A stretch of 59,829 nt of DNA, filler included, from Globobulimina sp. (lineage: Eukaryota), in assembly GCA_003354225.1 (NCBI GenBank). It is 12 parts of 12 records of this genome, joined end to end, with 100 filler letters (N's around TTAATTAATTAA, not from the genome) between each part and the next. Parts side by side here need not be neighbours in the genome. Positions count along the whole stretch, not along the records: positions 14,996 to 19,891 come from PIVH01000858.1; 11 more parts are not named here. The stretch is one strand, 5' to 3'. Each line of letters opens with the position of its first letter. Within the stretch, counting starts at the first letter, position 1. Under the pieces are notes generated by a model. That model was given only the letters and a program-made list of their open reading frames with translations, was not told the DNA's origin and searched no databases. A program made the position numbers and the translations under genes. This document shows positions 15,830 through 19,426 of this stretch, in pieces.

Positions 15830-17516
15830 ATGAAATTTAAAATAATTTGGAATAACGATATTCGAATATTTCAAACGAAGAGCAGTAATTGGGATGAAAT
15901 ATTACCATCAATAAGAACCTTTGTAGAGCAATCATTTGGAATCCATGATTTCAATGCAACATATATTGATGAAGAAGATGTTGAGTGCAAATTAAAATTA
16001 ACTCTCCATTTATTACATCATCGACCATTATAATACATAGGAAAACATAACAATTTCGCGGACATCAGATCTTGAGGATGCATTGGAGAGATACAAAGTG
16101 TTAAAGAAAATGCCCAGATTCCATATTACAATCAAGAAAAAAATGGATGCCAATGCAGCACCAGCAATGGCAATCGATGCAGGTTTAGTATCCGAATTAG
16201 CTCAAGAACATCGCAAGCGATTATTAAACGAAGCAAAACTAAACAAACAAAAAGAAAAAGGAGAATGGTTGGTTGAGCCAGCAATTTTAGCCATGAATAC
16301 AGTAAATAGAATCCGTGCAGTTGTGGATCAAATTGATATGACCCAAATCCCGCCAAATAAAGAATTTATATCTATTGCCATTGGCGATCCTACCAAATTC
16401 CCCAATTTATTGCCCTCACCCACTGTCACCAAAACTGTACAAAATAAATTATTATCGCAACAGTCAAATGGCTATACAATGAGTTATGGTTTAGAGGCAG
16501 CGCGGGATGCCATATCAAAGCAATATTCATTGCCACATATTAAATTATCCCACGAAGACGTTATTTTATGCAGTGGTTGTTCTGATGCATTAAATCTGAG
16601 TATATGCGCATTATTAAATAAAGGGGATAATTTTTTAATTCCTAAGCCTGGATTTTCGTTTTATGAAACATTAGCATCGCGCTATGGATTTGAATGTAAA
16701 TTTTATAATTTATTACCAGAAAAAGAGTGGCAAGTCGACGTGCCACATATGCGCTCATTGATTGATCAACGAACCAAATGCATTTTGGTGAACAACCCCT
16801 CCAATCCGTGTGGCAGTGTCTTGCCAGCTGCAAATTTATTGTCTATCTTAAAAGTAGCTGAAAATTATTCCATTCCCATAGTCTCGGATGAAATCTATGG
16901 TGGAATGGTGTATGATGATAATGAAGGAAAGGATAAATTTTTTAGCTGTGCGGAATTAACCAAAAAAGTACCAGTATTAACATTGAGTGGATTAAGTAAA
17001 CAGTATTTAGTTCCCGGATGGCGAGTTGGTTGGATTGTGATTCATGATCCCATCAATGCACTGATTAAAATACGAGCTGCATTACATAAGTTATCGTCGG
17101 TCTTATTGGGCGCAAACACCATAATACAAGCTGCCATTCCACGTATTTTATTTGAAACACCTGACACTTATTATGATGAATTAAATGATAAATTGCATCG
17201 ACAGTCCTTATTGTTTTATAGGGAAATTGATGAAATTGATGGATTGACCCCAATCAAAGCAAGAGGTGCAATGTATTTAATGGTGAAAATCGATATAAGT
17301 AAATTTCATTCGATTAAAAATGATATTGAGTTTGCAAATAAATTGTTAAAAGAACAAGCGGTGTTATGTTTACCTGGAACCATATTCAATGCGAAGAATT
17401 ATTTTCGTGCGGTTATATGTCCTCCACCAAATATAATACGTGAAATTGGCAAAAGGATGCAAGAATTTTGTAAAAAATATAGTAGTGCAAATACAAAGTT
17501 AGTTTCAAAATTGTGA
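15830..17516 (+). CDS. TAT: PB1-domain tyrosine aminotransferase with C-terminal SKL (copy 1), 2 exons
   Basis: Exon 15830-15979, intron 15980-16040 (GT..AG), exon 16041-17516. Splicing builds PB1 MKFKIIWNNDIRIF..YIDEEDENITISRTSDLEDAL. TAT motifs SIAIGDP, NNPSNPCG, SDEIY, GLSKQYLVPGWRVGW (PLP lysine). Ends VSKL. Confidence 0.92.
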
Positions 17517-17735
17517 ATTTGTGCTGGTAAATATCATACAAATTGACCCAATTCAAAATCTGGATGATTATTAATAACATATTTTATTTTTCATTAATAG
17601 TAATTTCTTCTCTTTACCATGATTTTATCATGAAATGACCTTCTTAGTACTGTATACAAATTGCTCTCCACTCAGCAACGCAACAAAATTAAAGACTTCT
17701 TTAAGCTGTTTTCACTCAAAAAAAACAAGCAAACC

Positions 17736-19426
17736 ATGAAGTTTAAAATAAGTTTCAACGATGACATTCGTATATTCAAAAGTGACACTGATAATTTGAA
17801 TCAAATTGTCCCAGCACTCCGAACTTTTGTATCTTTGCAATTTGGGATTAATAATTTTAATGCAGCCTATGTTGATGAAGAGAATGTATGTTTCCATATT
17901 GTGAAAACGAAAGAAATCTGTTACAACAAAACCAAACAAAAAAAAACAATTAGGAAAAAATTACCATTGCACACGATTCTGATTTGGAAGACGCAATTAT
18001 ACGCTGTAAGCAATTAGGCAAAATCCCTAAAATATATGTAACCATTAGACAAAAATTTTTACCAACACCAGGACGTGCTTTAGTAGCACAGGAAGAAAAG
18101 GTTAGTAATGCAAATAAATTACCTCAAATATATCAATATCAAGAGGCCGATGAAGATTTATCATCATTATCCTCACAGTCATGGACAGTGCAGCCATCGC
18201 TTGGTTCAATGCAAACTCGTAATAAAATATTTGAAGTGATCAATAAATTGGATATGACCGTACTACCTCCAAACAAAGAATTTATCTCTGTTTCCATTGG
18301 CGACCCTACGAATTATCCAAATTTATTACCAGCGCAATCTGTGATCGATGCGGTTCAAAGCAAATTATTATCGCAACAATCCAATGGCTATGCAATATCA
18401 TATGGTTTGCAGTCAGCGCGCGTTGCCATCTCTAAAAAATACTCCGTACCACATATGAAATTAAGCCAAGATGATGTTATTTTAGGAATTGGTGCCTCGG
18501 ATGCTATCAATATGTCGTTATGTTCCTTATTGAATGCAGGCGACAATTTCCTCTCTCCATGTCCAGGATATTCGTTTTATGACACAGTGGCGTCTCGGTA
18601 TGCTTTCGAGATCAAGAAATATAATTTGTTGCCGGATAATGAGTGGCAAGTTGATATACAACATATGAAATCATTGATTGATAAACGCACCAAAGCAATA
18701 TTAGTGAATTCACCATCCAATCCATGTGGGAGTGTATTGAAAATAAATAATATTTTAGAAATATTAGAAGTAGCTAAAGATTTTAGTATACCGATTATTT
18801 CGGATGAAGTTTATGGTGAAATGGTGTATGATGATAATAAGGGAACAGGCAACTTTTATTCATTTGCCTCATTGAGTAAGAAAGTGCCGATATTAACCAT
18901 TGGTGGCTTAAGTAAACAGTATTTAGTGCCGGGATGGAGAGTGGGATGGATCGTAGTGCATGATCCAATTAATGCATTCATTAAAGTACGAAGAGCATTG
19001 CAGAAGTTATCGACAGTGTTATTAGGGCCAAATACATTGATACAAGCATCTATACCAAGCATATTATTCGAAACACCTGATAGTTGGTATAAGGAATTAA
19101 ATGACAAATTATATCGGCAATCTACATTGTTTTATAATCAATTTGAGGATATTCCTGCATTAACACCGATACGTGGACGCGGTGCAATCTATGTAATGGT
19201 TAAAATACAATTGGATAAGTTAAGAGGTATTAAGAATGATATTGATTTTGCAAAGAAATTGGTGAAAGAACAGGCCATTTTAGTATTGCCGGGTACAATA
19301 TTTGGAATGGCAAATTATTTTCGAGTGGTGATATGTCCGCCATCCCATGTTATTTCAGAAATTGGTAAAAGAATGAAGGAATTTTGCGAAAAATATAGTG
19401 TAAATACGCTGTCGTCAAAATTATGA
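17736..19426 (+). CDS. TAT: PB1-domain tyrosine aminotransferase with C-terminal SKL (copy 2), 2 exons
   Basis: Exon 17736-17885, intron 17886-17953, exon 17954-19426, with the intron after codon 50 as in copy 1. PB1 YVDEENEKITIAHDSDLEDAI. GGLSKQYLVPGWRVGW. Ends SSKL. Confidence 0.92.

Follow-up and report, generated by a model that had tools for sequence, protein, structure and literature searches.

Tyrosine aminotransferases (TATs; EC 2.6.1.5) form a family of enzymes, dependent on pyridoxal phosphate (PLP), in which substrate specificity can be broad. PB1 domains are familiar as scaffolding modules of the cytosol, borne by kinases, polarity proteins, NADPH-oxidase subunits, auxin regulators and autophagy receptors. 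Solved and animal TATs have neither a PB1 domain nor a peroxisomal targeting signal type 1 (PTS1), unlike the two genes that we describe here from the foraminifer-like protist Globobulimina sp. (GenBank assembly GCA_003354225.1). The genes lie in a stretch of 59,829 nucleotides (the window: 12 parts from 12 records of this genome, joined end to end, filler included), within the part that comes from PIVH01000858.1, gene 1 at 15830..17516 and gene 2 at 17736..19426. Each encodes, in a single protein, an N-terminal PB1 domain that is put together by splicing, a complete TAT and a C-terminal SKL. Taken singly, none of these three components (enzyme, PB1 domain and PTS1) is out of the ordinary; their combination is undescribed in the searchable literature. 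The two genes are ancient duplicates that still stand in tandem.

Foraminiferal peroxisomes are thought to be important for life at oxic-anoxic boundaries. Transcripts of Pex5, Pex7 and Pex19 are reported from two other foraminifera, and the peroxisomes of Nonionella stella contain crystalline cores that were ascribed to catalase, according to a preprint (10.1101/2022.07.20.500910). Among PB1 domains of type AB, which bear both a basic and an acidic face, those of p62 (SQSTM1), TFG1 and AtNBR1 form filaments and pellet, and share in strand beta2 a tandem arginine on which polymerisation is reported to depend: in the study concerned (Jakobi et al. 2020, PMC6978347), its mutation abolished AtNBR1 self-binding and p62 bodies, while the AB-type PKC-zeta, which is without it, remains soluble. 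The PB1 domains of the atypical protein kinases C (aPKC), iota and zeta, act in cytosolic heterotypic scaffolding with Par6 and p62, and NBR1-type receptors have ZZ, FW and UBA domains besides their PB1; in the proteins described here these three domains are absent, and the PB1 is joined instead to a metabolic enzyme bearing a PTS1.

Both genes are on the + strand and share an identical layout, with a short first exon, an intron and a long second exon in open frame. Exon 1 of gene 1 (15830..15979) consists of 50 codons from the ATG at 15830 and encodes the first half of the PB1 domain, including the beta1 lysine (Lys4), Arg12 and the opening stretch of the OPCA motif as far as D50. It is followed by an intron of 61 nt (15980..16040, GT..AG) and by exon 2 (16041..17516), which encodes the second half of the PB1, a variable linker, the TAT domain and, directly before the stop, a terminal ...VSKL. 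Gene 2 repeats this order, with 50 codons from the ATG at 17736 for the first half of the PB1 (exon 1, 17736..17885), a 68-nt GT..AG intron (17886..17953) and a second exon (17954..19426) that carries the rest of the PB1, the linker, the TAT domain and a terminal ...SSKL before the stop. In each gene the intron interrupts the acidic OPCA motif. The spliced products, of 541 and 540 amino acids respectively, are 61% identical to each other. A first-pass annotation of this DNA, made by a model from the sequence alone, had given the outer limits of the pair exactly (15830 and 19426), and its placing of an intron after codon 50 in both genes agrees with the exon sequences and with the joints in the contigs described below.

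In both genes, exon 1 is joined by splicing to the exon that encodes the aminotransferase. The first-pass annotation had proposed a search for the junctions in RNA-seq data, and both of them, 15979->16041 and 17885->17954, are present in contigs of the public runs X1, X2 and X3, which come from two studies and skip both introns; these three were classed as RNA by the tool's guess alone, no run being on record as RNA. A further run, X4, crosses both introns unspliced at an even depth of ~5 and is DNA-like. In X1-X3 no depth is seen over the 127 bases that precede gene 1, and little or none between the genes. Their contigs show a divergence of a few per cent from the window, and their source is therefore a related strain or species. 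In-frame indels (3 bases missing, 9 inserted) separate these spliced contigs from the window at 16154 and 16180, in the linker of gene 1, which fits a linker that is free to vary among strains.

Database proteins tell the same story of joined exons. The unigene fragment P0122 (204 amino acids) spans the gene 1 junction and matches the spliced product at 202/204 residues; over residues 1-86, and thus over all 50 residues of exon 1, the two are identical. Full-length orthologues in which the sequence is joined in the same way are found in independent foraminiferal transcriptome sets. In two short database open reading frames, P0124 and P0127, the match to the profile ends at position 50 and is followed by V..., as if translation ran on into a GT intron, and the intron position therefore appears to be conserved in other species. 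A tblastn search of the window with both PB1s found no further PB1 exon.

That the PB1 is visible only after splicing, as the first-pass annotation maintained, is confirmed: Pfam matches neither of the exon-1 peptides taken alone (0/2, 50 residues each), and the joined N-terminus, scored as P0122, matches PB1 (PF00564) over residues 2-79 with 36.1 bits (cut-off 23.6; E 6e-9). Among full-length relatives, 8/8 score above the Pfam cut-off (24.9-37.0 bits). Against a local profile made from seven foraminiferal relatives, gene 1 reaches 141.5 bits and gene 2, whose PB1 was scored with this profile only, 142.4 bits, both over residues 1-84. Evidence on the fold comes from an AlphaFold2 model of the orthologue P0001 rather than of the window's own proteins: the model has the order beta-beta-alpha-beta-beta-alpha-beta at residues 2-82, with a predicted local distance difference test (pLDDT) of 84-93, and a model of the P0001 PB1 alone has a pLDDT of 86.1. 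When the PB1 model was compared with solved structures by Foldseek, the best match was the PB1 of NBR1 (E 4e-7 and 9e-7); PKC-iota, PKC-zeta/p62, Par6, p40/p67phox and the p62 filament subunit (4uf8, E 7e-4) ranked lower among the 22 matches at E<=0.001. The NBR1 PB1 (2bkf, 2g4s, 1wj6) is the closest both by profile (E 8e-6) and by fold (template-modelling (TM) score 0.75-0.78), and the TM scores against the NBR1 and PKC-iota structures taken together range from 0.71 to 0.78. The N-terminus is a true PB1 domain by its sequence and by the predicted fold of the orthologue.

The faces through which PB1 domains contact one another are those that have been kept. The basic face (MKFK..DIRIF) and the acidic one (YxDEE[DN]E.ITI...SDLEDA) are present in both genes; K4, D10, D48 and I54 are invariant among nine PB1-TAT N-termini, two of them very divergent. 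A profile alignment to PKC-iota (E 4e-5) places K4 on the beta1 lysine and Y.DEEDE.ITI..SDLEDA on the OPCA motif, so that lysine and OPCA are in register with aPKC over the whole domain; human NBR1 has N where the TAT PB1 keeps the beta1 lysine. Since beta1 lysine and acidic OPCA motif are both conserved, the domain is of type AB, like those of p62, TFG1, AtNBR1 and the aPKCs, and the two faces that the first-pass annotation had recognised (as type I/II) are upheld, with K4 and D48 present in 9/9 sequences. Compared in pairs, eight sequences share a mean identity of 0.59 in the PB1, 0.72 in the TAT and 0.18 in the linker; the difference between PB1 and linker indicates that the PB1 is under purifying selection and that the linker is a tether.

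The aminotransferase part is complete. The second exons match Aminotran_1_2 (PF00155) in Pfam with E 4.7e-64 for gene 1 and E 4e-59 for gene 2, and their closest solved relatives, to which they align end to end, are the TATs of mouse (3pdx, E 1e-112), human (3dyd, E 4e-111) and Trypanosoma cruzi (1bw0, E 5e-87). The PLP-lysine motif GLSKQYLVPGWR stands in register with GLAKRWLVPGWR of mouse TAT 3pdx, and an alignment of 18 homologues shows no variation at K372 or in the NPSNPCG residues. The catalytic domain is thus intact, as had been noted at first reading, and resembles that of described TATs along its whole length, NPSNPCG included; a fold-type I dimer is to be expected. The enzyme is a complete PLP-dependent tyrosine aminotransferase, with a substrate specificity that, read from its sequence, is putative.

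At the other end of the protein, SKL forms the C-terminus of both products, in agreement with the first-pass annotation, and [SA]KL ends 8/9 of the full-length PB1-TAT relatives, the exception being P0008, whose C-terminus looks aberrant. The tripeptide is retained although the residues ahead of it vary freely. Such persistence of [SA]KL behind a variable tail is what a functional PTS1 usually shows, and argues for import, which is predicted here from sequence. In the P0001 model the last nine residues are flexible (pLDDT <50 at 539-547) and the linker (86-123) is disordered. A PTS1-like ending ([SAC][KRH][LM]) occurs in 12/120 listed TAT homologues, ten of which are foraminiferal-type proteins and divergent PB1-TATs; the others are P0029 and P0023, the latter an Ammonia paralogue that has no PB1 and ends in [SA]KL. 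Among the other PB1 matches such an ending was found in 0/149, and the TAT paralogues are therefore the only PB1 partners predicted in the peroxisomal matrix, if they are imported.

The fusion is distributed beyond the window. It is found in two proteins of an Ammonia sp. transcriptome (P0001, P0005), in a second MMETSP set (P0002), in other EukProt entries (P0004, P0008), in environmental sequences (P0003, P0006) and, in more divergent form, in P0013, P0069 and P0130; by precomputed Pfam, 8/120 listed TAT homologues have a PB1. The highest identities are 67% between gene 1 and P0001 and, over the spliced product, 78% between gene 2 and P0004. A maximum-likelihood tree groups gene 2 with Ammonia P0005 and four others (support 100/100) and places gene 1 outside that clade, with Ammonia P0001 and P0002; the duplication therefore predates the split between the window organism and Ammonia. 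P0013 and P0069 form long branches in this tree. They also score low with a profile made from foraminifera only (17.2 bits for P0013; 28.7 bits for P0069, which has no Pfam PB1 at E<=0.1), so that their PB1 status is weaker, and a word-based search with P0069 residues 1-150 returned P0069 itself only. Given two members without PB1 (P0007 and P0009), the PB1 label needs 2 changes on the tree, which could mean either that the domain was gained once and later lost or that the records are truncated.

As for the source of the domain, a word-based search with the PB1 profile gave 11 matches among 7998 candidates, all of them PB1-TAT proteins save two fragments. A search of 1.84 billion representative proteins with the profile gave 241 matches at E<=0.001, the best of which were again PB1-TAT proteins or fragments (P0121, P0006, P0123, P0069, P0130). 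The 47 matches of at least 370 residues were taken into a Pfam scan, which found N_BRCA1_IG in 25, ZZ together with PB1 in 8 more and PF00155 in none; by the first of these counts, the TAT PB1 is most like that of NBR1-type autophagy receptors. Six short PB1-only predicted proteins (P0125, P0129, P0131-P0133 and P0137), from AT-rich, asparagine-rich sources, score 47-66 bits with the foraminiferal TAT-PB1 profile; these may be the first exons of more fusions, or small PB1 proteins.

We tentatively favor, at a little less than an even chance, a mechanism in which the two proteins are peroxisome-targeted TAT dimers that PB1 domains cross-link by front-to-back contacts without building p62-like filaments, both the binding and the location being inferred. 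Each chain runs from an NBR1-like AB-type PB1 through a disordered, variable linker of ~40-60 residues and a complete TAT to a flexible tail with the PTS1 SKL. Dimerization would take place through the aminotransferase fold, as in other TATs, and import into peroxisomes would depend on recognition of SKL by PEX5. The Lys/Arg face of one PB1 could then bind the OPCA face of a PB1 on another TAT dimer, of the same or of the sister paralogue, and with two two-faced PB1s on each dimer the outcome may be higher-order oligomers or a loose mesh.

Several observations weigh against this mechanism, and the first of them concerns the strength of the contact. RR occurs in 0/15 TAT-linked PB1 rows (the two window genes, nine full-length relatives and four fragments) at the columns matched to p62 R21/R22, where 11 rows have RI and one each RK, RL, RV and QL; the match rests on IRIF set against IRRF, which we take to be the motif of p62. 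Among the 157 other PB1 rows from the profile, RR stands in 58/129 with letters there, being common in the NBR1-type relatives, and the beta1 lysine is present in 120/123 with letters at its position. By the one published criterion that is testable here, that of PMC6978347, the TAT PB1 therefore falls outside the self-polymerising class; by analogy with PKC-zeta, which stayed soluble without the tandem arginine, it may associate with itself weakly or not at all. The nearest relatives of the domain are, moreover, cytosolic NBR1-type receptors, which makes a cytosolic heterotypic partner a live alternative. Two foraminiferal-type TATs, P0007 and P0009 (a fragment), have no visible PB1 and yet keep SKL, so that a peroxisome-type TAT can do without a PB1. 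The status of runs X1-X3 as RNA, finally, is a guess. A complex prediction for two PB1 copies gave no answer (score 0.00, no controls) and counts neither for nor against binding.

With a cytosolic partner the PB1 would be a heterotypic adaptor, most plausibly for an NBR1/p62-type autophagy receptor, and would couple the TAT to selective autophagy or vacuolar delivery, or to control of retention and turnover, with SKL acting on the unbound fraction only or not at all. We regard this as rather unlikely, though it is well worth keeping in view. The prevalence of NBR1-type proteins among the closest PB1 relatives (25/47 with N_BRCA1_IG, 8 more with ZZ and PB1) and NBR1 as the closest solved PB1 speak for it, as does the lack of a tandem arginine, a feature shared with PKC-zeta, which, according to PMC6978347, binds other PB1s instead of polymerising. 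The strict [SA]KL behind a variable tail, on the other hand, argues for import, which would take the protein away from cytosolic partners.

A bolder form of assembly within the organelle seems improbable to us: that a PB1, a module with no other known setting than cytosolic scaffolds, has been recruited into the organelle lumen, where the two paralogues, after import by their PTS1, would be knit by PB1 contacts into a hetero-oligomeric condensate or dense body. If true, such a lumenal PB1 assembly would be a genetically simple case of enzyme compartmentation within peroxisomes, and the lumenal TAT assembly possibly a component of the dense cores of foraminiferal peroxisomes.

Still less probable, in our judgment, is a reading along the lines of the first-pass annotation, in which the PB1 drives p62-like helical filaments, or a condensed or crystalline TAT core, in peroxisomes. 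An AB-type PB1 with both faces conserved would suit such a structure, and the dimeric enzyme body adds valence; dense cores do occur in the peroxisomes of one foraminifer, though they are ascribed to catalase in the preprint (10.1101/2022.07.20.500910). The tandem arginine of all three filament-formers tested in PMC6978347 is absent in 15/15 TAT-linked rows, however, and p62-like head-to-tail filaments are unsupported as stated; since the arginine finger is missing, discrete or weak chain-like association is to be expected in place of p62-type helical filaments.

An equally doubtful idea is that the domain no longer binds other PB1s and has become a beta-grasp appendage, acting intramolecularly or on the stability of the TAT (its activity, folding or turnover). 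Animal TAT has an unrelated N-terminal extension that is tied to turnover, and this counts in favor of the idea. Against it, the invariant positions are the beta1 lysine and the OPCA aspartate, which are the features of PB1-PB1 contact, even in very divergent fusions, and the linker is long, disordered and unconserved, as would be expected for a tethered interaction module. An artefact of mis-assembly, a chance upstream open frame or a pair of pseudogenes has a negligible probability, given that the structure occurs twice in the window, that spliced contigs come from three runs in two studies, and that full-length orthologues exist in independent transcriptomes with frames intact and catalytic motifs conserved.

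The first-pass annotation knew of no described PB1-TAT fusion, and none was found in the searchable literature; domain-architecture databases and the supplementary tables of preprint 10.1101/2022.07.20.500910, which hold predicted peroxisomal proteins, lie outside that search. No description of a peroxisomal tyrosine aminotransferase was found in that literature either, and PMC10874023 is silent on the location of TAT. PB1-TAT proteins are already to be found in public transcriptome collections, where automatic annotation has assigned both Pfam domains. The fusion is no accident of annotation: it is spliced, it is present in run contigs, its two paralogues have been kept from a time before the window organism and Ammonia diverged, and the interaction faces are the best-conserved positions of its PB1. 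It predicts peroxisomal tyrosine transamination in foraminifera. It also gives a tractable way to examine how a domain taken from an autophagy receptor of the NBR1 kind came to be reused, whether an enzyme inside peroxisomes can be organized by an electrostatic head-to-tail module, and whether AB-type PB1s lacking the arginine finger associate with themselves when mounted on a dimeric body.

The window as a whole is AT-rich eukaryotic DNA (GC ~0.28-0.41) with retroelements and long open frames. A Ty3/gypsy-like pol frame with RVT_1, RNase H and integrase (1-3543, + strand) runs off the window start, and a frame with an endonuclease and a reverse transcriptase like those of long interspersed nuclear elements occupies 29930-33394 (- strand). 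The 1636-residue frame at 5044-9954 (+ strand) ends in ~200 residues that correspond to the N-terminal part of HSP70 (E 1e-87); the ~1400 residues before them have no Pfam match. This frame may represent a read-through of several exons or genes, or else a fusion of an unusual kind. On the - strand there are further a frame with a Schlafen AlbA_2 domain (10270-11565, E 1e-11), one with DUSP and UCH ubiquitin hydrolase domains (55112-57466) and one of 1562 residues with a weak match to the REJ domain (50005-54693). Many further frames, of 200-970 residues, gave no Pfam family at E<=1e-4 (14/22 scanned). Paired runs of 44 N recur about every 5 kb (for example, 14896-14939 with 14952-14995, and 19892-19935 with 19948-19991), none of them within either gene; their regularity makes them look imposed rather than like assembly gaps.

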